From Escherichia virus TH22: a stretch of DNA of 64,000 nt. This document shows, piece by piece, positions 18,833-61,879 of the stretch. The stretch is taken from the sequence record MT446396.1; one strand, given 5' to 3'. Under the pieces are notes generated by a model. That model saw only the letters and a program-made list of their open reading frames with translations. It was not told the DNA's origin and made no database searches. The position numbers and the translations under genes are program-made. The stretch's first letter is position 1. Each line of letters starts with the position of its first letter.

Positions 18833-19390
18833 ATGAACGAAATTAAATTAACCAAGAATAACTATGTAAATAATAAAGAGCTTCTGAAAGCTATTTCGGA
18901 GTGGAAACAGAAGCTGAATGCGAACACCGACCCGAATAAAATTATTCGCCAGAACGACGTTATTGGTCTGGCAATTATGCTTATAGCCGAAGGTCTTAGC
19001 AAACGTTTCAACTTCTCCGGATATACCCAATCCTGGAAGCAAGAAATGATTGCAGACGGAATTGAGGCCGCAATAAAAGGTCTTCACAACTTCGACGAAA
19101 CAAAATACGATAATCCACATGCTTACATAACAATGGCTTGCTTCAATGCTTTCGTTCAGCGTATCAAAAAAGAACGTAAAGAAATGGCAAAGAAATATAG
19201 CTACTTCGTCCATAACGTGTATGATTCACGTGATGACGATATGGTGGCTCTGGCTGATGAAACATTTATCCAGGACATCTATGACAAAATGACACAGTAC
19301 GAATCCTCTTTAGTTAAAGCGCCAGGGTCTGATAAGAGCGCCAAAGATAAAGAAGGTGATTTGGATTTTTTATATGGAACATCAATTTGA
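18833..19390 (+). CDS. 55: late-transcription sigma factor gp55
   Basis: 185 aa; near-collinear with T4 gp55 (NYVNNKELL...[36 protein letters not shown]). Confidence 0.9.
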
Positions 19391-19607
19391 TATTACCGAT
19401 TTTTTAGATAAAATCGAGGAAGACTTTACTGCGCTCCCATATTTCATTAAACTTTATCTGCGAGACATAAAAGGTCTTCCAATTGATATCGACCCTTTAA
19501 ACGTCCGGAATCTGGAATTTACTTCACCGGATAATAACGTTGATTACCGTTATCATGTAGATAATGCTAATCTATATTTTACAATTGAGTTAACTCCCAA
19601 GGATTAA
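19374..19607 (+). CDS. hypothetical protein
   Basis: 77 aa; occupies the T4 alpha-gt interval. Confidence 0.3.
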
Positions 19608-19608
19608 T

Positions 19609-19920
19609 ATGCAAGCTCCAGATATTTCTCAACTGACCGATAAGCAGATTGAAGAAGCACAGGAACGTCTCGAAGAAGCGAACGCACTCGAAGCACAGAG
19701 TCAAGCGGCAAAGATTCTGAAAAAGAATGCTCGTGAAATTGCACGACTGAATAAGCATGCTCAAGGGGCAGTGCTGGAAAACAATTTTGAAGCATACAAA
19801 TATGCTTTAGTTAAACTGCGTGGAATTTACCGCCAACCAGTTACGGAAGACCTGATTAAGTTGATGTGGGAAACTACTCGCAAACAAATTTGGGAAATCG
19901 TAAATGGCATTAGTAAATAA
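19609..19920 (+). CDS. hypothetical protein
   Basis: 103-aa helical ORF. Confidence 0.35.
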   Translation: MQAPDISQLTDKQIEEAQERLEEANALEAQSQAAKILKKNAREIARLNKHAQGAVLENNFEAYKYALVKLRGIYRQPVTEDLIKLMWETTRKQIWEIVNGISK

Positions 19921-20104
19921 ACCTTTTAAACGGCTTCTTGTTGGAGCCGCTTTCAGACTTCGCTCATATGGTAATATCTGTATCAAGCAGACTGAAACCG
20001 AATATAAAATGGTTGGGCAGTATTCCGATGAAATTTTTCGGATTGAGCCTGTAGCCAAGGTTTGGGTGGATTCACATCAACTTAAGAAGTGGTGGCAACG
20101 ATGA
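19904..20104 (+). CDS. hypothetical protein
   Basis: 66-aa ORF. Confidence 0.3.
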   Translation: MALVNKPFKRLLVGAAFRLRSYGNICIKQTETEYKMVGQYSDEIFRIEPVAKVWVDSHQLKKWWQR

Positions 20105-20259
20105 TAACATGGACTGCCGGTTAATGAATGACGAATACGAAAAAGTTTAAGAGGTGTATTATGACTATTGATGATGTAAATATTCTTACTTCCGACGAAT
20201 TAAAACGATTGGGTAATATATTTCAAGACGAACATCCTGATTTTTAAGAGGTCATATGA

Positions 20260-20433
20260 ATGACGAATTCGACGGATTTTGATAAGATTAAATCTGATAA
20301 AAATGAGATGATACTTCAATTTGAAGCCGCTCGTATTAAAGCAGAAAATGAAGGTACTATTACCCATAAGAAAATCAAGTTCAAGTCTAATCGCGAACCT
20401 CTGTATGGTGTATTAATTGGAAAGGAAGCCTAG
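20260..20433 (+). CDS. hypothetical small protein
   Basis: 57 aa; below track cutoff. Confidence 0.3.
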   Translation: MTNSTDFDKIKSDKNEMILQFEAARIKAENEGTITHKKIKFKSNREPLYGVLIGKEA

Positions 20434-20446
20434 TGCTTCCTTTTTG
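20423..20446 (+). terminator. intrinsic terminator
   Basis: GGAAGCCTAGTGCTTCC hairpin + TTTTT. Confidence 0.6.
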
Positions 20447-20629
20447 CTTTATATTCGGGATGATAAAATGAACCAACTGAGGAGATTATATGGAATTATT
20501 TTTAGGATATGTTGTGTTATTCATGGCATTCTACACATTCACACGAGCTTGTTGGATAGGATTCTTTTCTACTCCTGACGGGTTCATTTCAATAATTTTA
20601 TTTTGCACTGCGATAACGGCGCTTGGCTT

Positions 20630-21649
20630 ATGAAAATTTTAAATTTAGGTGATTGGCACTTGGGTGTCAAAGCTGACGACCCATGGGCTCAAAACATTCA
20701 ACGTGATGGTATTTTACAGGCGATTGCATATTCCAAAGCAAATGGAATTAAAGTCTGGATTCAATATGGTGATATTTTTGACGTCCGTAAGGCTGTAACG
20801 CATAAGACAATGGAATTCAGCCGCGAGATTATGGAACTCCTTCGTGAAGCAGGAATTACTATGCACACGATAGTCGGGAACCATGACATGAATCTGAAGA
20901 ATAAGATTCATCCTAATGCTATCACCGAACTCCTGAATAAGTATGACCATGTTAAAATCTACGACAAGCCAACGACTGTTGATTTTGACGGTTGTCAGAT
21001 TGATATGATTCCATGGATGTGTGACGAGAACGCGACTGACATTCATCAACACATCAAAACTTCTGGTGCCGAATATTGCATCGGTCACTGGGAATTAACC
21101 GGGTTTTATTTCTATAAAGGATTGAAATCCCACGGGCTTGAGCCTGATTTCCTTAAGAAGTACAAGCAAGTTTGGTCTGGGCACTTCCATACCATTTCGG
21201 AAGCTGCGAACGTTAAGTACATAGGAACGCCATGGACATTAACAGCAGGTGATGAGAATGACCCGCGCGGATTCTGGGAATTTGATACAGAAACCGAAGA
21301 GATGAAATTTATTCCGAATGAAACCACTTGGCATCGGAAGATTTTCTATCCAAACGAAACTATTAACTACGACGACTTCAAAGACTTATCAGTCCGTGTT
21401 ATTGTAGAAAAAGTCGATAAAGACCTGACCAAGTTCGAATCTGAATTAGAAAAGCGTGTACATGAATTGCGTGTTGTCAATAAGGTTGATAACAGTGTTG
21501 ATACGACTGACTCCGAAGAAGAGTTAGACATAAAACGCTTAACTGATATGATGGCAGAATATATTGATGCATTACCTGACACCAATGAGAAAGAATCAAA
21601 AGCTCTTAAAGCATTGGCCAACAAATTATATCTTGAGGTGCAACCGTGA
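20630..21649 (+). CDS. 47: recombination endonuclease subunit gp47 (Mre11-like)
   Basis: 339 aa from ATG; phosphoesterase motifs LGDWHLG, GDIFD, GNHD; collinear with T4 gp47. Confidence 0.9.
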   Translation: MKILNLGDWHLGVKADDPWAQNIQRDGILQAIAYSKANGIKVWIQYGDIFDVRKAVTHKTMEFSREIMELLREAGITMHTIVGNHDMNLKNKIHPNAITELLNKYDHVKIYDKPTTVDFDGCQIDMIPWMCDENATDIHQHIKTSGAEYCIGHWELTGFYFYKGLKSHGLEPDFLKKYKQVWSGHFHTISEAANVKYIGTPWTLTAGDENDPRGFWEFDTETEEMKFIPNETTWHRKIFYPNETINYDDFKDLSVRVIVEKVDKDLTKFESELEKRVHELRVVNKVDNSVDTTDSEEELDIKRLTDMMAEYIDALPDTNEKESKALKALANKLYLEVQP

Positions 21650-29996: not shown

Positions 29997-30239
29997 ATGG
30001 AAACATTAATTGCAGGTACTGTTGTTCTTGGTGCTGGTTCTTTCTTCCTGGCTGCACTGGCATATTTTCTGCCGTGGATTATCGCGCTACTGCGAGGAAC
30101 CAAAAGTAATTGCGGAATCTTCTTTGTTAACCTCCTGTTAGGTTGGACAATGGTCGGGTGGTTTATTGCATTTATCTGGGCACTCGTTGCTGAACGTAAA
30201 TCAAACGCACAAGTAATTATCATCAAGGAAACCAAATGA
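29997..30239 (+). CDS. imm: superinfection immunity membrane protein (Imm-like)
   Basis: 80-aa two-helix membrane protein immediately downstream of gene 43, as T4 imm. Confidence 0.45.
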   Translation: METLIAGTVVLGAGSFFLAALAYFLPWIIALLRGTKSNCGIFFVNLLLGWTMVGWFIAFIWALVAERKSNAQVIIIKETK

Positions 30240-30379
30240 AGATGATTACAATTATTGTACTGATTGCATTTTTTGGTATGTCAATCTATTGGGCAATAAT
30301 GACTCCACATATGATTCCAACTTTAATTTTGGGTTGGGTATTTTTGGGGCTCCAAGCCCGCTATGAATGTTTTAATTGA
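30236..30379 (+). CDS. hypothetical small membrane protein
   Basis: 47 aa hydrophobic; ATGA overlap with imm; below track cutoff. Confidence 0.3.
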   Translation: MKMITIIVLIAFFGMSIYWAIMTPHMIPTLILGWVFLGLQARYECFN

Positions 30380-30389
30380 GGAAAATACA

Positions 30390-30893
30390 ATGAAAAAGTT
30401 AGCTATCGCAGCTGTTATACTGTTATCTGGTTGTGCTTACCAGGGTGATGTAGTTAATGCCAGTGAGATTGGTAAAGCGCGAATTGCTGCAGACCGTCAG
30501 GTGCATAATGGTTCCTTTGATTTCAAAGGTGGTACTGGACTTATCTACAAACGCGACAACAATCAATGTGGAAATAACTGCGCGAAATATGCTCAACAAG
30601 AAATTGAGTACAAACGCGAGCAAGCTGCGAAGCATGATGAAGTAATCGCTAAATTAGAAGCAGAAACTAAGCGACAAAATGACTTGGATACTGTTAACCA
30701 GATTTCACAGGTCTGTATGTCATACATCAATATGCAGATAAACATCATGCGCGCGGAAGCTTATCAGGCAGCAGAGGCTGGTTCTCCAAAAGCTAATGAG
30801 TATCGCGATATGTATCAGCGTTCTGCTCAAAACCGTCTGAGCTATATTAATAAATGTGTAGCTAAAGAGAAAGCACGCCAAGGTATTAACTAA
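30390..30893 (+). CDS. putative lipoprotein
   Basis: signal peptide with lipobox LLSGC; coiled-coil-like C-terminus; occupies the interval where T4 has 42/beta-gt. Confidence 0.5.
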   Translation: MKKLAIAAVILLSGCAYQGDVVNASEIGKARIAADRQVHNGSFDFKGGTGLIYKRDNNQCGNNCAKYAQQEIEYKREQAAKHDEVIAKLEAETKRQNDLDTVNQISQVCMSYINMQINIMRAEAYQAAEAGSPKANEYRDMYQRSAQNRLSYINKCVAKEKARQGIN

Positions 30894-30978
30894 CATTAAT
30901 TGCTCTAAAAATACAGTGATATAATTATCCTATCTTAAACCTGTGAGAAAAATATAATGGTGCCTATGGAAAAAATGA

Positions 30979-32157
30979 ATGTCTATTGCAGATTTGAAAT
31001 CCCGTTTGATTAAAGCTTCTACATCCAAAATGACTGCGACTCTTACTAAGTCCAAGTTTTTTAATGATAAAGATGTAGTTCGTACAAAAATCCCGATGCT
31101 GAACATTGCAATCAGCGGTGCACTAGATGGTGGTATGCAGTCAGGTTTGACTATTTTTGCTGGTCCGTCAAAACACTTTAAATCCAATATGGGTTTAACG
31201 ATGGTCTCTGCATATATGAACAAATACCCCGATGCAATCTGTTTGTTCTATGATTCAGAATTTGGTATCACAGAAGCATATCTTCGTGCAATGAAAGTTG
31301 ACCCGGAACGTGTTATTCACACACCAATCCAGTCGGTTGAACAATTGAAAGTTGATATGGTTAACCAGCTTGAAGCAATTGAGCGTGGTGAAAAAGTCAT
31401 TATCTTTATTGACTCAATCGGTAACATGGCGTCTAAAAAAGAAACAGAAGATGCGATGAACGAAAAAGTCGTTGGCGATATGACTCGCGCTAAATCCCTG
31501 AAATCTCTATTCCGTATTGTTACCCCATATTTTAGTATCAAGGATATCCCTTGTGTCGCGGTTAACCATACAATTGAGACGATTGAGATGTACAGCAAAA
31601 CCGTTATGACCGGTGGTACAGGTGTTATGTATTCTGCAGACACCGTATTCATTATCGGTAAACGTCAGATTAAAGAAACTGGTAAAGAACTTGAAGGTTT
31701 CCAATTTGTTCTGAACGCCGAAAAATCTCGTATGGTCAAAGAGAAAAGTAAATTCTTCATTGATGTAAAATTCGATGGGGGTATTGACCCGTATTCTGGC
31801 CTGCTTGATATGGCAATGGAAATTGGATTTGTGGTGAAACCGAAAGTTGGTTGGTATAACCGTGAATATCTTGATGTTGAGACCGGTGAAATGGTCCGCG
31901 AAGAAAAATCATGGCGTGCAAAAGATACTAACTGTACCGAATTCTGGGGTCCATTGTTCAAGCACGAACCTTTCCGTGATGCAATCAAACGACATTACCA
32001 GCTGGGTGCAATCGATAGCAATGCTGTTGTTGACGCCGAAGTTGATGCGCTTATTGCCTCCAAGGTTGAAAAATACTCTGCCCCTGAAGGTAAGGCAAAA
32101 CCATCTGCGGCAGATATCGAAAACGATTTAGATATGATGGAAGACCTTGATGAATGA
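30979..32157 (+). CDS. uvsX: recombinase UvsX (RecA-like)
   Basis: 392 aa; Walker A GPSKHFKS; collinear with T4 UvsX. Confidence 0.95.
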   Translation: MSIADLKSRLIKASTSKMTATLTKSKFFNDKDVVRTKIPMLNIAISGALDGGMQSGLTIFAGPSKHFKSNMGLTMVSAYMNKYPDAICLFYDSEFGITEAYLRAMKVDPERVIHTPIQSVEQLKVDMVNQLEAIERGEKVIIFIDSIGNMASKKETEDAMNEKVVGDMTRAKSLKSLFRIVTPYFSIKDIPCVAVNHTIETIEMYSKTVMTGGTGVMYSADTVFIIGKRQIKETGKELEGFQFVLNAEKSRMVKEKSKFFIDVKFDGGIDPYSGLLDMAMEIGFVVKPKVGWYNREYLDVETGEMVREEKSWRAKDTNCTEFWGPLFKHEPFRDAIKRHYQLGAIDSNAVVDAEVDALIASKVEKYSAPEGKAKPSAADIENDLDMMEDLDE

Positions 32158-32491
32158 TATCGATTTATCTGATTTAGATAATTTCGAGAAAGATGCGGAG
32201 GGAGCTAAGGCTCCTTCTGTGCCTTACTACGAAAAAAGTTTGGAGATTATCCGGCAATCCATGGGAACCGTACGACAGGAAATTCTGTTATCACTCCCTG
32301 ATGGGTCCAATCACATTGTGTACGTAACCGGAATTAAAATTGAACCATCTGGAAAAGTTTCAGTTGATTTCGGCACCCCTTCTGAAGACCGCAAAGCGGA
32401 GCTTGCAGTGCATGTAGAAAAGTGTGTTACAATGCAAATACAAGATGAAATTGATAAGATTAAAATGAAAAAGAGGTGGTGGAAGTGGTAG
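32147..32491 (+). CDS. 40: gp40-like head vertex assembly protein (by synteny)
   Basis: 114-aa ORF between uvsX and 41. Confidence 0.5.
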   Translation: MMNDIDLSDLDNFEKDAEGAKAPSVPYYEKSLEIIRQSMGTVRQEILLSLPDGSNHIVYVTGIKIEPSGKVSVDFGTPSEDRKAELAVHVEKCVTMQIQDEIDKIKMKKRWWKW

Positions 32492-33915
32492 AAACTATTT
32501 TATCCCAGCTACTCTTTAACAAGGAATATTTTGTTAAAGTCTGGCCATATCTGAATAGCACATATTTTGAAAAGGGTCCCGCGAAGACCCTTTTTAATAC
32601 GATTAACGAACACGTAAAAGAATATCAAGCTGTACCAACTAAGACTGCACTTGATATTGCACTTGACAACTCTGACCTTTCTGAAGTCGAATATGAAGGC
32701 ACAAAGAAACTTTTAGGAGTCCTGGCCGATACTCCAGAAGACCAGGAATGGTTGGTTAGAGAAACCGAAAAGTATGTACAGAAGTCTGCGATGTTCAATG
32801 CCACATCCAGGATTATCGAAATCCAGAGTAATGCCGAACTTCCTAAAGATAAACGTGATAAACGAATCCCGGATATCGGTGCTATCCCTGACATCATGCG
32901 TGATGCATTGTCCATCTGTTTTGATTCTGCCCTTGGTCATGACTGGTTAAACGATTACGAGGCTCGATTCCAGACTTATCTGAACAAATCGAAGAAAGTT
33001 CCGTTCCGCATTAACATCCTGAATAAAATTACGAAAGGCGGGGTTGAGTACGGTACAGAGAACGTTTTACTAGCCGGGACGAATGTCGGTAAATCTCTGG
33101 GGCTTTGTTCGTTAGCGGCTGACTATCTTCAGACTGGTCATAACGTTCTTTATATAAGCATGGAAATGGCCGAAGAAGTATGTGCCAAACGTATTGATGC
33201 CAACTTGCTGGATGTATCTCTGGATGATATTGATGAAGGTCATATATCATGGGCGGAATATAAAGCTAAGATGGAAAAATGGCGTGCTTCCGGGACTCTC
33301 GGGACTCTGAAGATAAAACAATATCCAACTGGTGGTGCTCATGCGGATACCTTCCGTGCATTACTGAACGAGTACAAACTGAAGCAAGGGTTTGTACCGG
33401 ATGTGATTATTGTTGACTACCTGGCAATCTGTGCAAGCTCAAGACTGAAAACGTTTACCGAAAACAGTTACGGCCTGATTAAGATGGTTGCAGAAGAACT
33501 TCGTGGTCTGGCAGTTGAGAAAAATGTGGTCTTGTGGACTGCAGCGCAGACAACCAGGGGCGCGAACGTTGCAGCCGAGATTGATATGGCTGACATTGCA
33601 GAATCCTTTGGTATTGCTCACACGGCTGACTTTATGCTGGGTGTTGTTGAGACCGAAGAATTCGCTCAAATGGGGCTGCAGTTAATCAAACAGCTTAAGT
33701 CTCGTTATGGTGATAAGAACTACTATAATAAATTCAAGATGGGTGTTAAGAAAGGTAATCAGCGCTGGTATGAGGTTGATGATGATTCGGCTCCTAAACA
33801 AGGCCCTACGGTTAAAGAAGCCACCGGTGAGATGAATCGCCAGGCCGAAATGAATCGACAAACCAGGGTCAACAGGAGCGACCTGGATGACCTTGCTGCT
33901 CAAATGAAATTTTAA
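32485..33915 (+). CDS. 41: replicative DNA helicase gp41 (DnaB-like)
   Basis: 476 aa from GTG with AAGAGG SD; Walker A GTNVGKS; collinear with T4 gp41. Confidence 0.9.
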   Translation: MVETILSQLLFNKEYFVKVWPYLNSTYFEKGPAKTLFNTINEHVKEYQAVPTKTALDIALDNSDLSEVEYEGTKKLLGVLADTPEDQEWLVRETEKYVQKSAMFNATSRIIEIQSNAELPKDKRDKRIPDIGAIPDIMRDALSICFDSALGHDWLNDYEARFQTYLNKSKKVPFRINILNKITKGGVEYGTENVLLAGTNVGKSLGLCSLAADYLQTGHNVLYISMEMAEEVCAKRIDANLLDVSLDDIDEGHISWAEYKAKMEKWRASGTLGTLKIKQYPTGGAHADTFRALLNEYKLKQGFVPDVIIVDYLAICASSRLKTFTENSYGLIKMVAEELRGLAVEKNVVLWTAAQTTRGANVAAEIDMADIAESFGIAHTADFMLGVVETEEFAQMGLQLIKQLKSRYGDKNYYNKFKMGVKKGNQRWYEVDDDSAPKQGPTVKEATGEMNRQAEMNRQTRVNRSDLDDLAAQMKF

Positions 33916-34805: not shown

Positions 34806-35099
34806 ATGAAAAAGTTATTAATCGCGGCAATTCTTACCGTAGCATCATGTGGTACAGCTCCAGTTACTGCTGGACTTGATAAAAACCTTTGTGAGTGGTC
34901 TATGACTGCGGACCAAACTGATGTTGAAACTCAAATTCGCGCTGACATCATGAATATTACTAAACGTGACCGCCCTGATATGGTTAAAGAAGTATCTGAC
35001 CAATTGACTTCTGGTGACGTTATGCAGTATAACTATGTTCTGTATTGCGATGCTTCATTTGACAATAGCAAAATTGTTCAATGGGTTACAGGTGAATAA
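34806..35099 (+). CDS. sp: Spackle-like periplasmic superinfection-exclusion protein
   Basis: 97 aa, signal peptide (LTVASCG); size and position (61.3 slot between 41 and 61) match T4 Sp. Confidence 0.5.
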   Translation: MKKLLIAAILTVASCGTAPVTAGLDKNLCEWSMTADQTDVETQIRADIMNITKRDRPDMVKEVSDQLTSGDVMQYNYVLYCDASFDNSKIVQWVTGE

Positions 35100-35100
35100 A

Positions 35101-35538
35101 ATGATTAACAGAAATTTGGTTATCAAAAAACTTCGTTGTAAAAATCCAAATGCGCAGGCATACAGGGTGTTTTGGAGCGACGAAATTCAATATCTGGGTT
35201 ATTTTCTTGTTGATAGTGATGATAGAATTACGTTTGCTCATAAACTTCTTAACAAAGAATTAAACCATTGGAAAGAACTTATTGCAGTCAAGTCTAAATT
35301 ATTTTCGCGCAATACAATGCACCAATTGGTTTATTTTTTCGCTGATGGTATTCCTGACAAGGTTGAGTTTGAAGGGTTTGAATTTAAAGACATCAACCCT
35401 GACAATGAATTGAATGACAGTATTGTTAATATGGGTATCCCTGGCAAGTACATCAAAAACAGTCTTTTGAAAATTCTGGAAAATCCTGTTTATTCAGTTG
35501 ACGACCAGATTTTTAATGCCTTCATGAAGCGAGATTAG
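35101..35538 (+). CDS. hypothetical protein
   Basis: 145 aa; C-terminus DDQIFNAFMKRD repeated in next ORF. Confidence 0.35.
   Translation: MINRNLVIKKLRCKNPNAQAYRVFWSDEIQYLGYFLVDSDDRITFAHKLLNKELNHWKELIAVKSKLFSRNTMHQLVYFFADGIPDKVEFEGFEFKDINPDNELNDSIVNMGIPGKYIKNSLLKILENPVYSVDDQIFNAFMKRD
35499..35536 (+). repeat. 36-38 bp direct repeat, copy 1
   Basis: GACGACCAGATTTTTAATGCCTTCATGAAGCGAGATTAG; near-identical to 35860..35897. Confidence 0.8.
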
Positions 35539-35539
35539 T

Positions 35540-35899
35540 ATGAGTTATTATAATTTTCTGAATTTTGAACTGGTGAGCAATAATAATGGTAATGCTCACT
35601 ATGAATTTCGTGAGCCCCGTTATAATCAGGCGATTGGTTATATCATCGTTAAAGATGGTGTTATCATAAAGGCTCGTTCGTTTATGACAATGAATGGGCC
35701 TTGTGAAGATAATCGTGGTTATCCATTTGATAAAAAGAACGTACGCGATTGTGCAGTATGGATAACCGGAAACCCTGAAATTGGGGTCATGATATCTACT
35801 GAAGCAAATGACATTCTGGAAGGGGCTTGGGTTAAAGCTCAAGAACCGCCTACTGATATTGATGACCAGATTTTTAATGCCTTCATGAAGCGAGGTTAA
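35540..35899 (+). CDS. hypothetical protein (bracketed by direct repeats)
   Basis: 119-aa ORF ending DDQIFNAFMKRG. Confidence 0.35.
   Translation: MSYYNFLNFELVSNNNGNAHYEFREPRYNQAIGYIIVKDGVIIKARSFMTMNGPCEDNRGYPFDKKNVRDCAVWITGNPEIGVMISTEANDILEGAWVKAQEPPTDIDDQIFNAFMKRG
35860..35897 (+). repeat. 36-38 bp direct repeat, copy 2
   Basis: GATGACCAGATTTTTAATGCCTTCATGAAGCGAGGTTAA. Confidence 0.8.
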
Positions 35900-36475: not shown

Positions 36476-36507
36476 TGGTCCTTCGGGGCCATTGAAATGA
36501 GGAAACT

Positions 36508-37536
36508 ATGTCATATATTGATAGAGAATTTGCAGTCAGAGCTTTATCGTATCAACCACGTTATAGAGAAGTCACCGGGAGCACATTTAAGGCAAACTGT
36601 CGTTGCAAGGTTTGTGGTGACTCCCAGAAAGATTCGCACAAGGCTCGATTCTGGGCGTATACCAATCCGTCTGATGGTGCGGTTTACGTGAAATGTTTTA
36701 ACTGTGACTACTCCACGCATATAAGCAAATACATAAAAGAGTTTGAGCCGGATTTGCACCGGGAATATATGGTTGAGAAGTACAAGGAAAACGCCTTCGG
36801 TCGACAACGTAATGAAGTTGCAGAAGCTCCGAAAGAACAAGAAAAAACTCCGGTTATTGAAGAGCTTGCTTTTTGCGAAAGAATCGATACTTTACCAGAA
36901 GCGCATCCGATAGTTAAGTATGTGAAAAGTCGGTGTATTCCGAGCAATGTTTGGAACCGGTTATGGTTTACAAACAAATGGCCTGCATTAGTTAACTCCG
37001 TTAATCCTGGGACGTATAAGAATGAAACGAATGAACCACGCTTGGTTATTCCTATCTTCAACGGCAAAAAAGAAATCGAATCTTTCCAAGGACGAGCTCT
37101 TCGCAAAGATGCACCACAAAAATATATCACAATCAAAGCTCACCCAGAAGCTTCCAAAGTCTATGGCGTAGACAAGATTGATGAGCGCAAGCGCGTGTGG
37201 GTAATGGAAGGTCCGATTGATAGTTTGTTTATCCCTAACAGCATTGCGATAACCGGTGGAACATTAGCATTGGAAGCCGTTCCTTATGCTGAAACCCGAG
37301 TATGGGTAATGGACAACGAGCCAAGACATCCGGATACGATTAAACGTATGAAGAAGCTCGTTGAAGCGGGTGAAGCCGTTATGTTCTGGGACAATGCACC
37401 ATGGCATACGAAAGACATAAATGAGATGGTTAAATCGGAGGGCGCAACCCCTGAACAAATCGAATCATATATGGCCGATAACATTGCTCAAGGGTTGATG
37501 GCGAGAATGCGACTTTCGAAGTACGCAAAAGTTTAG
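36508..37536 (+). CDS. 61: DNA primase gp61
   Basis: 342 aa; N-terminal Zn ribbon CRCKVCG...CFNCD, TOPRIM-like EGPIDSLF / VMDNEP. Confidence 0.9.
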   Translation: MSYIDREFAVRALSYQPRYREVTGSTFKANCRCKVCGDSQKDSHKARFWAYTNPSDGAVYVKCFNCDYSTHISKYIKEFEPDLHREYMVEKYKENAFGRQRNEVAEAPKEQEKTPVIEELAFCERIDTLPEAHPIVKYVKSRCIPSNVWNRLWFTNKWPALVNSVNPGTYKNETNEPRLVIPIFNGKKEIESFQGRALRKDAPQKYITIKAHPEASKVYGVDKIDERKRVWVMEGPIDSLFIPNSIAITGGTLALEAVPYAETRVWVMDNEPRHPDTIKRMKKLVEAGEAVMFWDNAPWHTKDINEMVKSEGATPEQIESYMADNIAQGLMARMRLSKYAKV

Positions 37537-37654
37537 GAAGGGATTCCGGTAAGTTCCACAGAAAAACATCAAGAGCTAAAAAGCCCATGATGTTTCTTGT
37601 CTTTCTTACTGGTTAATTTCCAAATCCGATGGAATAATATTCACATTATTCCAT

Positions 37655-37852
37655 CTATATAAGGCCGATTAATGCCAGTAAAATATCTACAACTGATTCG
37701 AGTGCAATGACTGGTAATATAACACCATGTGTCAATGCAACAGGGGCAACAACGAAGTTCCAGAGTAGAACTAAACAGAGTATCGAAAGGACCAGAATCG
37801 TTCGCTTACGACTGCCTTTGATGGCTTGAATTAGACTAGATAGTTTGAGCAT
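37655..37852 (-). CDS. hypothetical small membrane protein (opposite strand)
   Basis: 65 aa from ATG with GGAGGA SD (track ORF 37655..37882 -); two hydrophobic helices; CATAAATA late-promoter-like element upstream on the - strand. Confidence 0.4.
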   Translation of the reverse strand: MLKLSSLIQAIKGSRKRTILVLSILCLVLLWNFVVAPVALTHGVILPVIALESVVDILLALIGLI

Positions 37853-37879
37853 ATATCCTCCTTCCGTGTATTTATGCTT

Positions 37880-37937
37880 CAAACCAATATGATATAATTA
37901 ACATACAAAATAACATGAATTGATAAGGAAAAATATA
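37880..37937 (+). promoter_or_regulatory. promoter upstream of gene 56
   Basis: TATAAT at 37893-37898. Confidence 0.4.
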
Positions 37938-38456
37938 ATGGCTCATTTTAATGAATGTTCACAACTGATTGCCGGTGTTGATAAAGCTGAAGAAGCTTAT
38001 GACAATGCAATTACAAAAGGTACTGACCCGCTGCAGATTATGCTTGATATGCAGAAATCATTGCAAGTTCGTCTGGCTACTGAAAAACCAGAATATAACT
38101 CACATCCAGATGAATTGGCTACTGCAGGTGATGTTGTTGCATGGCTTCGTAACCAGAAAGATTATGTCGACGACGAATTCCGTGAACTTCTGACTTCTCT
38201 CGGTGGTATGTCTAATGGCGAGAAAGCTGCATCTAGTGTATGGAAACCATGGAAAGTCCAACATGCTGAATTCCGTAATCGTCGTATTGATGAGTTGTCT
38301 CCCGAAGACCAGCTCGAAATTAAATTTGAGATGATTGATATCCTGCACTTTGTTCTGAACATGTTCCATGGCCTTGGACTGACTGCAGAAGAAATCTTTA
38401 AATTGTATTACCTGAAAAACGCTGAGAACTTTGCTCGTCAGGACCGGGGTTATTAA
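37938..38456 (+). CDS. 56: dCTPase/dUTPase-type NTP pyrophosphatase gp56 (MazG-like)
   Basis: 172 aa from MAHFNEC; collinear with T4 gp56 (EFRELLTSLG, MIDILHFVLN, FARQDRGY). Confidence 0.8.
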   Translation: MAHFNECSQLIAGVDKAEEAYDNAITKGTDPLQIMLDMQKSLQVRLATEKPEYNSHPDELATAGDVVAWLRNQKDYVDDEFRELLTSLGGMSNGEKAASSVWKPWKVQHAEFRNRRIDELSPEDQLEIKFEMIDILHFVLNMFHGLGLTAEEIFKLYYLKNAENFARQDRGY

Positions 38457-48525: not shown

Positions 48526-50358
48526 ATGATGATTAATAATGAAATTAAAGTACTCTCGGACGTCGAGCATATCAAAAAACGTTCCGGGATGTATATTGGT
48601 TCCAGTTCAAATGAAGCGCATGAGCGATTCTTGTTTGGTGAATATAAGTCCGTAAGCTATGTTCCTGGTATTGTAAAACTGATTGATGAAATTATTGATA
48701 ACTCTGTTGATGAAGCAATTCGCACCAGTTTTAAATTTGCCAATAAAATTGATGTTCAAATTAAAGACAATCAGATTTCGGTTTCTGATAATGGCCGTGG
48801 TATTCCACAAGCAATGGTTACAGACCAAAACGGTGAACAAATCCCTGGCCCTGTTGCAGCATGGACTATTCCAAAAGCAGGTGGCAACTTCGGTGATGAT
48901 GCTGAACGTAAAACTGGCGGGATGAATGGCGTCGGGTCTTCTCTGACCAATATTTTCTCTGTATTGTTCACCGGGATTACCGCTGATGGTGCAAATGAAA
49001 TCACCGTTAACTGCTCCAATGGTATGGAAAACAAAGGTTGGTCTACCAAGAAATCTAAGGGTAAAGGTACAACTGTTATTTTTGTTCCGGACTTCAGTCA
49101 CTTTGAAGAAAATAGTCTGTCCCAGATTTATCTGGATATTACATTGGACCGTCTGCAGACTCTTGCGGTTGTTTATCCGGATATTCAGTTTACCTTTAAT
49201 GGTAAAAAGGTTGATGGCAATTTCAAGAAGTTCGCCAAGCAATTCGGAACCGAAGTTGTTATCCAGGAAACTGATACAGTATCGATGGCCTTTACGACTA
49301 GCCCGGATGGTTTCCGCCAGTTGACTTATGTCAACAACATTCATACAAAGAATGGTGGGCACCACGTTGAATGTGTTATGGATGATATCTGTGAACATCT
49401 TCAGCCAGCCATTAAACGCAAATATAAAGGCATTGAGGTGACAAAGGCACGAGTTAAAGAATGCCTCACCATGCTTATGTTCATCCGCGATATGAGCAAC
49501 ATGCGATTTGATTCCCAGACTAAGGAGCGATTGACTTCTCCGGCTGGTGAAATTCGAAATCACATTAAGATTGATGCCAAGAAAATCGCACAAGCTATTC
49601 TGAAAAATGAACCGCTGATTATGCCGATTGTTGAAGCTGCATTAGCCCGTAAATTGGCTGCAGAGAAAGCAGCAGAGACCAAGGCGAATAAGAAAGCTTC
49701 AAAGGCCAAGGTGCAAAAGCATATCAAGGCTAACGAATGGGGCAATGATAAGCTGGAAACGACTCTGTTCCTGACCGAAGGTGATTCTGCAACCGGTCCA
49801 TTTATCAAGGTCCGCGACCGTGAATTACAAGGTGCTTATCCGTTACGTGGTAAGTTCAAAAACACATGGGGTCTGAAAGCTGTTGACGTTATGAAGAACG
49901 CCGAAGCCTTTGATGTTTGTGCGATTACTGGTTTAACGATTGGACAACCGGCCGAGAATATGAATTACCGAAACATTGCTATCATGACAGATGCGGATGT
50001 GGATGGTGTTGGTAGTATCTATCCATCGTTATTGGCGTTTTTCAGTAACTGGCCGGAGCTGTTCCATGAAGGGCGAATTCGCTTTGTGAAAACTCCTGTT
50101 ATTATTGCGCAGCTCAAAGATAAACAAGAATGGTTTTATTCTCTTCCTGATTATGAAGAAGCTAAGGATAAACTTCCGAAGCATACTATCAGATATATAA
50201 AGGGACTTGGTTCTCTGGAAGATGCCGAGTACAAACGCGTATTGCTCGAACCGGTATTCGAAGTTGTTCAATTGCCCGACAACTGGAAAGAACTGTTCGA
50301 AATGCTCTTCGGTAAAGATTCCCAGCAGCGTAAAGATTGGATGAATGCAACACTATAA
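48526..50358 (+). CDS. 39: DNA topoisomerase II large subunit (GyrB-like), fused 39+60 type
   Basis: 610 aa; GHKL ATPase and TOPRIM; single uninterrupted ORF covering the part T4 encodes separately as gene 60. Confidence 0.9.
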   Translation: MMINNEIKVLSDVEHIKKRSGMYIGSSSNEAHERFLFGEYKSVSYVPGIVKLIDEIIDNSVDEAIRTSFKFANKIDVQIKDNQISVSDNGRGIPQAMVTDQNGEQIPGPVAAWTIPKAGGNFGDDAERKTGGMNGVGSSLTNIFSVLFTGITADGANEITVNCSNGMENKGWSTKKSKGKGTTVIFVPDFSHFEENSLSQIYLDITLDRLQTLAVVYPDIQFTFNGKKVDGNFKKFAKQFGTEVVIQETDTVSMAFTTSPDGFRQLTYVNNIHTKNGGHHVECVMDDICEHLQPAIKRKYKGIEVTKARVKECLTMLMFIRDMSNMRFDSQTKERLTSPAGEIRNHIKIDAKKIAQAILKNEPLIMPIVEAALARKLAAEKAAETKANKKASKAKVQKHIKANEWGNDKLETTLFLTEGDSATGPFIKVRDRELQGAYPLRGKFKNTWGLKAVDVMKNAEAFDVCAITGLTIGQPAENMNYRNIAIMTDADVDGVGSIYPSLLAFFSNWPELFHEGRIRFVKTPVIIAQLKDKQEWFYSLPDYEEAKDKLPKHTIRYIKGLGSLEDAEYKRVLLEPVFEVVQLPDNWKELFEMLFGKDSQQRKDWMNATL

Positions 50359-53341: not shown

Positions 53342-54313
53342 ATGTTTAATATCAAATGTATGTCTAAAGCCGAACAAGCTGATGTGGTCCAGATGTATTC
53401 AACGGGCAATTATACCCAGCCTGAATTGGCAGAATATTTTGCTGTGTCCGTTGACACCATTCGCCGCGTTTTGAAAAATGATAAAGAATCAAAATTAGCT
53501 AAAACCATTTCTGCATCACTGAAAGCAGCTGTTGGTGTGGCGATTAATGCTCCGGTGACAGTAACGGTTGAAGTCCCGGTTACTGATACAATCGGCGGAA
53601 GCCGACCGGAAATCGTATGGAATGCATCAAGCAAATTCGTTTCCATCACTGAAGGCCGTACAGTCTGGAACGCAACAAAAGACCATAAACACTTTGATGA
53701 TATTATTCAGGCACTCAAAGAATCTCGTTTTGACGATGCTATCGAGTTTATCTCAATCAAAGCTGCAGTACAAAAATATGTGAAAGGCGATGTGCGTATT
53801 GAAGGCGGTAGTCTGTTCTATCAGGGAATTGAACTGCGCTCTGGTCTGGTTACTCGTATCATCGATTCAATGCAAAATGGCGAAGACTTTGAATTCTATC
53901 TGCCGTTCCTTGAGAATCTCCTTGAGAACCCGAGTGAGAAAGCTGTGCAGCGTTTGTTTGACTTCCTGGTTGCAAACGATATCGAAATCACCGAAGACGG
54001 TCATTTCATCGCATGGAAAATGGTTCGTGCAACTTACAAAGATTGTCACTCAAACACATTCGACAACAGCCCTGGTCAATATGTTAAAATGCCGCGCTCT
54101 CGTGTGAATGACAACGACGAACAAACCTGTTCAACTGGACTGCACGTTTGTTCTAAAGGTTATATCGGAAGTGGTTTTGGTCATGGTGATGGACGCATCG
54201 TATCCTGTAAAGTTCACCCGCGTGATGTTGTAAGTATCCCGGTTGATTATAACGATTCCAAAATGCGGGTCTGTGGTTACTTAGTCCTTGATGATGTAAC
54301 TGAACAATTCTAA
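53342..54313 (+). CDS. rIIB: rIIB
   Basis: 323 aa; collinear with T4 rIIB (MFNIKCMSK..., SPGQYVKMPRSRVNDNDEQTCSTGLHVCSKGYIG). Confidence 0.95.
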   Translation: MFNIKCMSKAEQADVVQMYSTGNYTQPELAEYFAVSVDTIRRVLKNDKESKLAKTISASLKAAVGVAINAPVTVTVEVPVTDTIGGSRPEIVWNASSKFVSITEGRTVWNATKDHKHFDDIIQALKESRFDDAIEFISIKAAVQKYVKGDVRIEGGSLFYQGIELRSGLVTRIIDSMQNGEDFEFYLPFLENLLENPSEKAVQRLFDFLVANDIEITEDGHFIAWKMVRATYKDCHSNTFDNSPGQYVKMPRSRVNDNDEQTCSTGLHVCSKGYIGSGFGHGDGRIVSCKVHPRDVVSIPVDYNDSKMRVCGYLVLDDVTEQF

Positions 54314-54346
54314 ATTAATCGGGGCTTCGGCCCCTAATGAGGCTTT

Positions 54347-54547: not shown

Positions 54548-54868
54548 ATGATTAACTATATGAACGTTGGCGATGAATCTATTAACGAAATTCGATTGCA
54601 TGGTAATCATGTTGCGGATATTGTTTATTGTGTTGATTGTCATTATGCTTCCACAAAGTCAACTGGCCGGTTATATGCGAGAGACATCATTCTTGCAACG
54701 AAAGAAGAACTTCGTAGTCTGGACCATTCTACTCTAGCCGAAAGTGCCAGAATTTATTATGGCGTCGTTCATGTAGACAAAGTTTATATTGGCAGTGATT
54801 ATCAAGAGCAAGCTGAGCAAAATTCTTTGGATGTTGTCGAAAAATCCGATATGTATTTTAAAGGATGA
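54548..54868 (+). CDS. hypothetical protein
   Basis: 106-aa ORF. Confidence 0.3.
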   Translation: MINYMNVGDESINEIRLHGNHVADIVYCVDCHYASTKSTGRLYARDIILATKEELRSLDHSTLAESARIYYGVVHVDKVYIGSDYQEQAEQNSLDVVEKSDMYFKG

Positions 54869-54872
54869 GCTG

Positions 54873-55466
54873 ATGATTCAGAAGAGTAAAACATGGGAGC
54901 ATCTGAAAAAGATGCCCTCCTTTCTTTATACAAAGGAAGACTTAACCCCCGAATCCCTGCAAAAGATTGTAGACACTGCCAGGTATTCATTGCGTAAAGA
55001 CCCAGGTCAGGACCGTGAGCAAGTCATGCAAAGATGTATGGTGGCTACAATGGCTGAACAAGCTATTGCTAAATGGACTTCAGGTTTTTTATGTGGTGGC
55101 GATGAAGATTACGATAATCCTTATTCCTTTGCATTTGATGTAGTTTCGAAGGAAGGGGTGAGAATCGAAGTCAAGACCCACCAGTCTGGTTCCAAATGGA
55201 TATCCGTGCATACTGGTCACCAGGGTGATTATCCGCATGGTTACGGGATTAATCTTGGTCCTTTTATGCAGCACAAGCTTGCCGACCTTATGATTATGCT
55301 CGATGTAAAAGAGACTCTCAAAGGTTGTAGATTTAAACCAAAATTCCTTGCTGGACCTGGTGCTTTCGTTCCTGAGTCTGGTCTTGTGCAGAAGTCACAA
55401 GGGGATGGTTGGTACCTCCGTTCTTGTTCAGAAGAAAAATTTCCCTATCACCGGTTTACAAGCTGA
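54873..55466 (+). CDS. hypothetical protein with PD-(D/E)xK-like motif (candidate nuclease)
   Basis: 197 aa; FDVVSKEGVRIEVK fits the D-x(n)-E-x-K pattern; in the interval where T4 has denB. Confidence 0.35.
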   Translation: MIQKSKTWEHLKKMPSFLYTKEDLTPESLQKIVDTARYSLRKDPGQDREQVMQRCMVATMAEQAIAKWTSGFLCGGDEDYDNPYSFAFDVVSKEGVRIEVKTHQSGSKWISVHTGHQGDYPHGYGINLGPFMQHKLADLMIMLDVKETLKGCRFKPKFLAGPGAFVPESGLVQKSQGDGWYLRSCSEEKFPYHRFTS

Positions 55467-57353: not shown

Positions 57354-57803
57354 ATGACTACTTACATGACCCGTCGTGACGTACTGAATGCTGGCGCTAC
57401 CACTGTTGCTTACATCCATAATGGTAATTATGTCGCAGGGCGTCCAACTAAAGAAGCTATCACCCAACCAGGTTTTTATTTCGTGGTTAAAGGTGAAGGC
57501 GAATCACGTATTGTTGCTGCACGTTTTTACGTTGGTAACCAACGTTCACAACAAGGGTTTGACACTGTATTAAGTCACATCCGCAAACAGCGTTCTCAAC
57601 TGTCTCGCACAATGGCGAACAATGGTGTTATCTATGAAGTCCTGTTTGTTCCAGTTTCTAAAATGAAACCTCTGACAACTGGTTATGGTAAAGGTCAAAT
57701 TGCGATGGCGTTCACACGCTCGCATAGTTCTGATTGCCAGACCCTTTCAGAAATGAATCGCATGCTTGCTGATAACTTTAAATTCATTCTGCAGAGTTAT
57801 TAA
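57354..57803 (+). CDS. ndd: nucleoid disruption protein Ndd
   Basis: 149 aa; position upstream of stp/52 and recalled similarity to T4 Ndd ([31 protein letters not shown]). Confidence 0.55.
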
Positions 57804-57804
57804 T

Positions 57805-57978
57805 ATGAGACATTTCTTTGCAATGGGTTACTTATTTGTTTTAGCACTATTTGTTATTACAGGAGCCTTTATAGCCTTTGGCGCTCCATTTAATGATAAA
57901 GTTGCTGTTACTATGTGCTTTAGTGGTGGGTATATCTGTTTTGAACGCTTATGCAAAATGTGTGGTATATATGAGTAA
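57805..57978 (+). CDS. hypothetical small membrane protein
   Basis: 57 aa hydrophobic; below track cutoff. Confidence 0.3.
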
Positions 57979-58051
57979 TTTCCATAATGAACATGTGATG
58001 CAATGGCATCGTCATAATCTGAAATTAACTGGCGTCTTCGGGCGCCCTTGA
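57971..58051 (+). CDS. stp: Stp peptide (activator of host anticodon nuclease PrrC via EcoprrI)
   Basis: 26-aa [29 protein letters not shown]; length, position (ndd-stp-52) and sequence match T4 Stp as recalled. Confidence 0.6.
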
Positions 58052-60783: not shown

Positions 60784-61116
60784 ATGAATAAGCTGAATAT
60801 TGTTAATGAATTGCGCGCTTGTGTAGAACCTACTCAAGAGGGTTGGGATGTTTGGTATCATGGCGCTTACCTTGGAACTATTATCAAGGTCAAAGCTGGT
60901 CAGTATCTTATCCATCGTCAGGATGATGCAGTAGCTCCGTTTGGTGCACGCAAGAACTTCATGGCAGCGATTGGTGCCTTTGTTCCAGCAGCATATGAAG
61001 TATATAAAGCTGACTACAAAGAATACCAGGAATCACAACCAGTTATTCGCTCAATTGGTGTTAATAAAGCTCAACAGAAAAGTCTGTGGCAACGTGTTAA
61101 AGGTTGGTTCAAATGA
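60784..61116 (+). CDS. hypothetical protein
   Basis: 110-aa ORF. Confidence 0.3.
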
Positions 61117-61601
61117 ATCCATTAAAAGGTAAAGAATTATCCTTTAAAGACCGTATAGCTTTATTAGATAAAGCTCTTTCTCGCGAGACTCCAGAAAGCC
61201 TCGCTGCTAAATTACGGGCATATGGTGATTACACCGAATATAATGAAGAAGATGTCCTGGAAGAAGTCCCGGAAATCTGTTGGCAGATTGCTCATTGGAA
61301 CAACAATGAAAAATATCAGCGCCGGATTGTGTGCGCAGCCAACCGCTTCAGGTTAAAAGATGGTGGGACTCTGGTTATTCCTGGTGCCAGACATTATTCA
61401 AAAGATATGGCAGAAGTTCTTGACCAGGTAAGTGATAAACTTGTGTCAGACCATGTTTGTGGTGATAATCAAGGATTCATTGACCAATACAGCAATTACT
61501 GGACCCGCGAAGAAGCAATGATTATTGCGACTTATGCAAATCAGGTGCGCATTGAACGTGGCGGTAGTGAGAAAGAACTTTATTCAGAGGACCTTTACTA
61601 A
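61104..61601 (+). CDS. hypothetical protein
   Basis: 165-aa ORF. Confidence 0.3.
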
Positions 61602-61879
61602 TGAACCTTAAACAACTCCAAATTGATGCGATTGAAAACCATATTAATCATATCAAACGGCTGAATACCATGATGGAAGACAACTGGGGAACTTATGTTA
61701 ACCAGCCAGGTTGGGATGCCCTAGACCATGAATATATAAAGGATATTAGTGATAACACATATAGAGTTAGAGAAGGCCTGAAACCATTCCTGCGTGATAT
61801 GTATATTGCGACCAATAAAGAAATTATTAGTTCTCTTGAATACCAATTAAGGAAATTGTATGAACAACCTGGTAGCTAA
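61601..61879 (+). CDS. hypothetical protein
   Basis: 92-aa ORF. Confidence 0.3.
   Translation: MNLKQLQIDAIENHINHIKRLNTMMEDNWGTYVNQPGWDALDHEYIKDISDNTYRVREGLKPFLRDMYIATNKEIISSLEYQLRKLYEQPGS

Follow-up and report, generated by a model that had tools for sequence, protein, structure and literature searches.

This study has paired the DNA endonuclease of a T4-like coliphage with a candidate for the base that would protect the phage from it. The open reading frame (ORF) concerned, 54873..55466 of the window (the whole 64,000-nucleotide stretch of Escherichia virus TH22 that was analysed, sequence record MT446396.1), is, as judged from its sequence, a true orthologue of T4 DenB, or endonuclease IV. 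We consider it highly probable that the protein is DenB and that it separates cytosine from modified cytosine, a judgement that does not extend to the identity of the modified base. For that identity, residues of the phage Td protein, its only thymidylate-synthase (TS) homologue, tip the balance towards 5-methylcytosine (5mC) made at the nucleotide level.

The denB ORF adds nothing new in itself: it is annotated already, and a 2025 paper reported its PD-(D/E)xK motif. The genus to which the phage belongs, Gaprivervirus, keeps an anti-cytosine arsenal (dCTPase, DenA, DenB and Alc) without a hydroxymethylase, a combination that papers of 2021 and 2025 flagged as unexplained. An Asp-for-Asn substitution in Td offers a concrete and cheaply testable hypothesis, that of a T4-like coliphage with a 5mC genome. 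Should it hold, it would resolve the puzzle of the 'unknown non-canonical base' raised in 2021 and 2025, would bear on phage therapy, transduction risk, Type IV restriction and BREX sensitivity, and would show with what precision DenB and Alc sense C5 of cytosine.

The denB locus and its product

The 197-aa product matches PHROG 1360 ('DenB-like DNA endonuclease IV') with an E value of 9e-80, its residues 1-196 aligning with positions 1-203 of the 203-position profile, and blastp aligns it with T4 DenB (NP_049887, from NC_000866) at 46% identity over 178 aa (E 2e-57). The original prediction had placed a candidate nuclease in the denB slot; the slot was right, and the ORF is more than an occupant of it, being DenB itself at full length. 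All 25 DenB homologues carry Pfam PF26887 in precomputed annotations, the sole source of that assignment. A local Pfam-A scan of the ORF returned a sub-threshold chance match only, and NCBIfam holds no family for either DenB or gp56.

The gene bears the annotation 'DenB DNA endonuclease IV' in UPEC07 (MW250787; Straboviridae, Tevenvirinae, Gaprivervirus), a genome 98.9-99.9% identical to the window over bases 4050-64000, most of its length, and DenB is likewise annotated in TH55, another near-identical Gaprivervirus genome in GenBank. The family is small, with 25 clusters in an indexed search and 38 matches when its profile was run against 1.84 billion representative proteins; no bacterial relatives of DenB were found among those 38 matches. 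The 90%-identity cluster that contains the present protein holds 78 member sequences, with a representative that is 99% identical.

The reading frame opens with ATG at 54873 and closes with TGA at 55464-55466, and AAGGA lies 8 nt 5' of the ATG. In MW250787 the GenBank start corresponds to window position 54831, 14 codons earlier, and overlaps the preceding ORF. Since all DenB homologues begin with MIQ or MIR, and since a Shine-Dalgarno sequence precedes 54873, this start is better than the one at 54831.

Gene order around denB is that of T4: 39, rIIA, rIIB, denB.1, denB, small ORFs, ndd, an stp-like peptide, 52.1 and 52. The block running from rIIB through denB.1, denB and ndd to gene 52 is thus present, with one extra ORF between denB.1 and denB that encodes a DUF7418 protein and for which no T4 counterpart was found (Table 1). 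The gene had been described as lying just after rIIB; it does lie downstream, but two small ORFs, the DenB.1 homologue and the DUF7418 ORF, stand between them.

Table 1. Features of the denB locus and of the cytosine-related gene inventory (window positions)
Feature	Position	Strand	Remarks
Empty alpha-gt slot	19391..20629		between gene 55 (18833..19390) and gene 47 (20630..21649)
Empty gene 42 / beta-gt slot	30240..30978		between imm (29997..30239) and uvsX (30979..32157)
Gene 56, dCTPase/dUTPase	37938..38456	+	68% identity to T4 gp56, full length
rIIB	53342..54313	+	60% identity to T4 rIIB; upstream synteny anchor
denB.1 homologue, 65 aa	54347..54544	+	48% identity to T4 DenB.1; Pfam crAss001_48, E 2e-17
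DUF7418 ORF, 106 aa	54548..54868	+	Pfam DUF7418, E 9e-26; PHROG 2237
denB ORF, 197 aa	54873..55466	+	endonuclease IV orthologue
ndd, nucleoid disruption protein	57354..57803	+	61% identity to T4 Ndd; downstream synteny anchor

Promoter-like sites around denB were no commoner than in shuffled sequence, while terminator-like hairpins were somewhat enriched (6 against 1.6 in shuffles), and the promoter and terminator scan singled out no specific regulatory site there. The rIIB stop and the denB.1 start are 33 nt apart, and the gap contains a GGGGC-TTCG-GCCCC hairpin with a UUCG tetraloop (54321..54334) that resembles intercistronic hairpins of the mRNA-stabilising kind.

Several other observations concern the wider neighbourhood. 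T4 Stp, which activates the host anticodon nuclease PrrC, shares 80% identity with a 26-aa peptide (57971..58051) contained in an ORF annotated only as hypothetical in UPEC07. One gene of 610 aa (48526..50358) encodes the topoisomerase large subunit where T4 has the split genes 39 and 60, and the unsplit gene is therefore without the translational-bypass element. Two adjacent ORFs (35035..35538 and 35540..35899) have the C-terminal sequence DDQIFNAFMKR in common and match T4 gp61.2, or AdfA (anti-DarT factor), weakly and only at its C-terminus.

Catalytic residues and predicted fold

From its conserved residues and a structural model, DenB is a PD-(D/E)xK-type nuclease. This assignment is correct but not new, the motif having been described in 2025 (PMC12405507) and an AF3 model with Mg2+ in 2026 (PMC12916289). 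The stretch in which a D...ExK core had been read, FDVVSKEGVRIEVK, is present in the ORF as residues 88-101. The bare motif was rejected as evidence for a nuclease: the pattern D-x(5,20)-[DE]-x-K is found in 46 (71%) of the window's 65 plus-strand ORFs of 100 aa or more and arises in 74% of shuffles of the DenB protein. In DenB it gains meaning because D89, E99 and K101, together with E62, are invariant in homologues, as are T102 and H103 (21 DenB homologues compared).

An AF2 model built on the homologue alignment (mean pLDDT 89, pTM 0.86) places E62 in a long helix (48-68), D89 just before strand 90-91, and E99 and K101 within strand 97-103. This is the PD-(D/E)xK layout, with an acidic residue at the start of beta2, ExK on beta3 and a Glu in the first core helix, and the model together with its Foldseek matches in the PDB displays the restriction-endonuclease-like alpha-beta-beta-beta-alpha-beta core. 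The best of these matches are NhoI and the N-domain of Eco15I (E 1e-4 to 1e-3, probability 0.99-1.0), followed by MvaI, SwaI, HincII, BcnI, NlaIV, PvuII, MutH and RecE, so that PD-(D/E)xK enzymes dominate. TM-scores to solved structures are low (0.3-0.47), and the superfamily assignment therefore draws on the consistency of the hits and on the motif. Independent DenB models in BFVD fit the AF2 model with an rmsd of 1.9 A, and a sequence search of the PDB with the DenB family profile found no credible match. The original prediction of a nuclease fold is thus upheld by both invariant catalytic residues and a match to restriction endonucleases.

Sites defined by mutation are also kept. T4 S176 corresponds to S175 here, and the T2 escaper positions G71, G180 and W181 correspond to G71, G179 and W180. 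Replacing W88 of T4 DenB by Arg inactivates the enzyme; the present protein has Phe there, and throughout the DenB family the residue is F, W or Y, always aromatic. T4 endonuclease IV needs a divalent cation, Mg2+, cuts single-stranded DNA (ssDNA) 5' of dC and leaves glucosyl-hmC DNA uncut (PMC1635256); Mg2+-dependent, dC-specific ssDNA cleavage that leaves the phage's own modified DNA intact is known for T4 and T2 DenB only (PMC1635256, PMC12916289). We found no mention of methylated substrates in PMC1635256. By orthology with T4, the phage protein would be a Mg2+-dependent PD-(D/E)xK endonuclease that cuts ssDNA 5' of dC, and it would help to destroy host DNA and block the replication of any dC-containing DNA.

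Cytosine modification and the candidate protecting base

The phage had been supposed to carry unmodified cytosine, and the basis for this was real. Neither the window nor the whole 170-kb UPEC07 genome gave a tblastn match to T4 gp42, alpha-gt or beta-gt, or a phmmer or HMM match to gp42. Of the places these genes occupy in T4, that between imm and uvsX has only a 176-aa lipoprotein ORF (30363..30893, PHROG 1754), and the largest ORF in the gap between genes 55 and 47 is one of 103 aa.

The conclusion drawn from these absences is not supported. Gene 56 is present; its product eliminates dCTP and provides dCMP, the mark of a phage that keeps plain dC out of its DNA. Outside the window, the genome also has alc (52% identity to T4) and denA (74%); its gene complement further includes cd (87%), gp1, frd and ndd. 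Among T4-related coliphages, all Tevenvirinae genera have both denB and alc, whereas Krischvirus and Pseudotevenvirus, whose DNA is C-DNA, have neither (PMC12115623), and dC DNA is impossible in T4 unless denB is inactivated (PMC1635256). By restriction analysis the close relative VR7 has 'modified cytosines' that are unglycosylated (PMC6326788 and its supplement); that experiment labelled the T4 147 control, but not VR7, as hydroxymethylated (PMC6326788). For Gaprivervirus, with its DenA, DenB, Alc and dCTPase and no hydroxymethylase, an unknown non-canonical base has been proposed (PMC8056088, PMC12115623). The DNA of the phage is almost certainly without plain cytosine. If the cytosine were unmodified, a nuclease in this position had been expected to need a different self/non-self logic. 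Given gp56, alc and denA, the C-DNA genera without DenB and the modified cytosines of VR7, the logic is most likely that of T4, cytosine against C5-substituted cytosine, with another substituent.

No homologue of T4 arn or dam was found in the window or the genome. Homologues of arn.4, arn.3 and arn.2 lie at 60784..61879, while neither arn, which encodes the McrBC inhibitor, nor arn.1 was detected. As for dam, it is missing from its T4 place between genes 61 and 56 (36505..38456) and, by tblastn, from the rest of the genome. Outside the window, at 114280..115985 of UPEC07 (MW250787.1), are encoded a 319-aa protein with DUF7277 and DUF7275 and a 228-aa protein without a family, neither with a T4 homologue.

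The gene td lies outside the window and was for this reason read from near-identical public genomes. In UPEC07 it occupies 32227..33087 of MW250787.1 and is the only TS-fold ORF of the genome; searches of the six-frame translation with a TS-family HMM, with T4 gp42 and for a homologue of the RB69/JK45-type 5-hydroxy-dCMP synthase found no second TS. The protein matches TIGR03284 with 283 bits and shares 68% and 59% identity with the two exons of T4 Td. In place of the T4 Td sequence LPFNIASY it has GLPFDIGSY, which puts an Asp (Td Asp187) at the position of E. coli ThyA Asn177, and it keeps Leu143 (MALPPCH) and Asp169 (RSVDVF). These three motifs are common to the Td proteins of UPEC07, VR7 (td at HM563683 142489..143349), CJ20, P8 and SP18. 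Among the best 120 Td clusters, Asp is found in four of Gaprivervirus type (including SP18 and vB_YenM_P8; 86-99% identical) and in one metagenomic cluster, against Asn in 114 from other T-even genera. Every Gaprivervirus checked has the Asp and no gp42-bearing relative does; VR5, whose DNA is glycosylated, is not among the 32 records with an Asp-type td.

In ThyA, Asn177 governs the choice between dUMP and dCMP, and its replacement by Asp turns a TS into a dCMP methylase; most TS genes on viral contigs with modified cytosine encode Asp at this position (PMC8670742). According to published rules, Asp177 denotes dCMP as substrate, a hydrophobic residue 143 denotes methyl and an acidic one hydroxymethyl, and Asn169 denotes 5-hydroxy (PMC13326640). 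Td combines the sequence features of an XP12-type dCMP C5-methyltransferase, namely the TS fold, the catalytic Cys, Asp177, a hydrophobic residue 143 and Asp169. Its residues suggest a dCMP methylase, a signature that predicts the substrate and is not proof of the product, and by virtue of this signature self-protection would probably proceed via 5mC. No earlier report of 5mC or of a dCMP methylase in Gaprivervirus was found in the literature searched, the coverage of which is incomplete.

In the pathway that we propose, gp56 would convert dCTP to dCMP, Td with its Asp187 would convert dCMP to 5-methyl-dCMP while Frd recycles dihydrofolate, and gp1 together with host NDP kinase would carry 5-methyl-dCMP to 5-methyl-dCTP and so into 5mC DNA. 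The source of dTMP could be the deamination of 5-methyl-dCMP by Cd (dCMP deaminase) or, instead, host ThyA. The phage would tolerate DenB because its own DNA holds no plain cytosine. For Gaprivervirus as a whole (SP18, VR7, VR20, UPEC07 and others), we put at about even the chance that 5mC has fully replaced cytosine by way of the Asn-to-Asp Td after loss of gp42, with DenB, Alc and DenA telling host from self by the C5 methyl group. Alc is reportedly blocked by CpG methylation (Kashlev 1993, as cited in PMC8056088). Relatives of the phage have been propagated on K-12; since arn is absent, an unglycosylated 5mC genome would need some other measure against McrBC.

The missing Arn would fit better with a base unseen by McrBC, and this is one of the points in favour of a modified cytosine other than 5mC, produced by an unrecognised enzyme and blocking DenB as in T4, with Td still acting as a dTMP synthase. 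Such a base is the view taken in PMC8056088 and PMC12115623, the VR7 restriction data say only 'modified', and several ORFs without a T4 homologue have only DUF matches or no family. A candidate enzyme was not found, however: the genome ORFs without a T4 homologue yielded only DUF7275/7277, DUF7338 and family-less proteins, with Td as the sole TS-fold ORF. The distribution of the Td Asp, universal in the Gaprivervirus genomes checked and foreign to gp42-bearing relatives, also argues against this reading, as does the statement, attributed in PMC8670742 to Liu & Santi 1992 and Hardy & Nalivaika 1992, that efficient dTMP synthesis is not expected with Asp. We hold such a base to be possible and distinctly less probable than 5mC.

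Ordinary cytosine DNA, with DenB restrained by an inhibitor or immunity protein (DenB.1 or the DUF7418 protein, for example), by timing or by a strict ssDNA context, would agree with the absence of gp42, alpha-gt and beta-gt and with the extra small ORF directly upstream of denB. It is very unlikely, given that a gp56 so similar to that of T4 would remove dCTP, that alc and denA accompany it, that no T4-like genus with C-DNA has DenB or Alc (PMC12115623), that the cytosines of VR7 are modified by experiment (PMC6326788) and that T4 needs denB inactivated for dC DNA (PMC1635256). Even fainter is the prospect that denB is a decaying or repurposed relic that does not cut dC DNA. Nothing specific favours it apart from the Phe in place of T4 W88, a position that is aromatic throughout the family; the gene is of full length, the catalytic residues and Ser175 are all conserved, and the cluster of 78 sequences speaks against decay as well. 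The reading that we prefer remains a DenB that would spare a modified cytosine, probably 5mC.

Comparison with known systems

The closest parallel is T4 itself. Phage and T4 DenB are similar in length and share the E/D/ExK catalytic residues, the Ser176 equivalent and the gene surroundings rIIB-denB.1-denB...ndd. The phage protein differs in a C-terminus 12 residues longer and in the F that replaces W88, and its locus differs in the DUF7418 ORF, which is inserted upstream of denB in the phage only. Of the T4 hmC pathway, gp56, gp1, cd, frd, denA, denB, alc and ndd are all in the phage too, whereas gp42, alpha-gt, beta-gt, arn and dam are missing. Since the phage has neither gp42 nor the glucosyltransferases of T4, its protecting base cannot be glucosyl-hmC.

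The best structural matches, NhoI and the N-domain of Eco15I (PDB 8rpx, 8q5n and 8q5o), have the superfamily core in common with DenB. At 9-17% sequence identity and TM-scores of 0.3-0.47, they have no sequence-level relationship to it. They also differ in logic: both need methylated cytosine (5mC-dependent), while C5-substituted cytosine blocks DenB, an enzyme that cuts ssDNA.

For Td, the comparison is with the dCMP methyltransferase of XP12, a Xanthomonas phage with a 5mC genome, and with the engineered enzymes ThyA N177D and L. casei N229D. The TS fold and the Asp are common to all of these, and 5-methyl-dCMP would be the predicted product. In contrast to the XP12 and engineered enzymes, the phage Td is a sister of the ordinary T-even Td proteins, 64-70% identical to them, and the Asn-to-Asp switch therefore looks recent.
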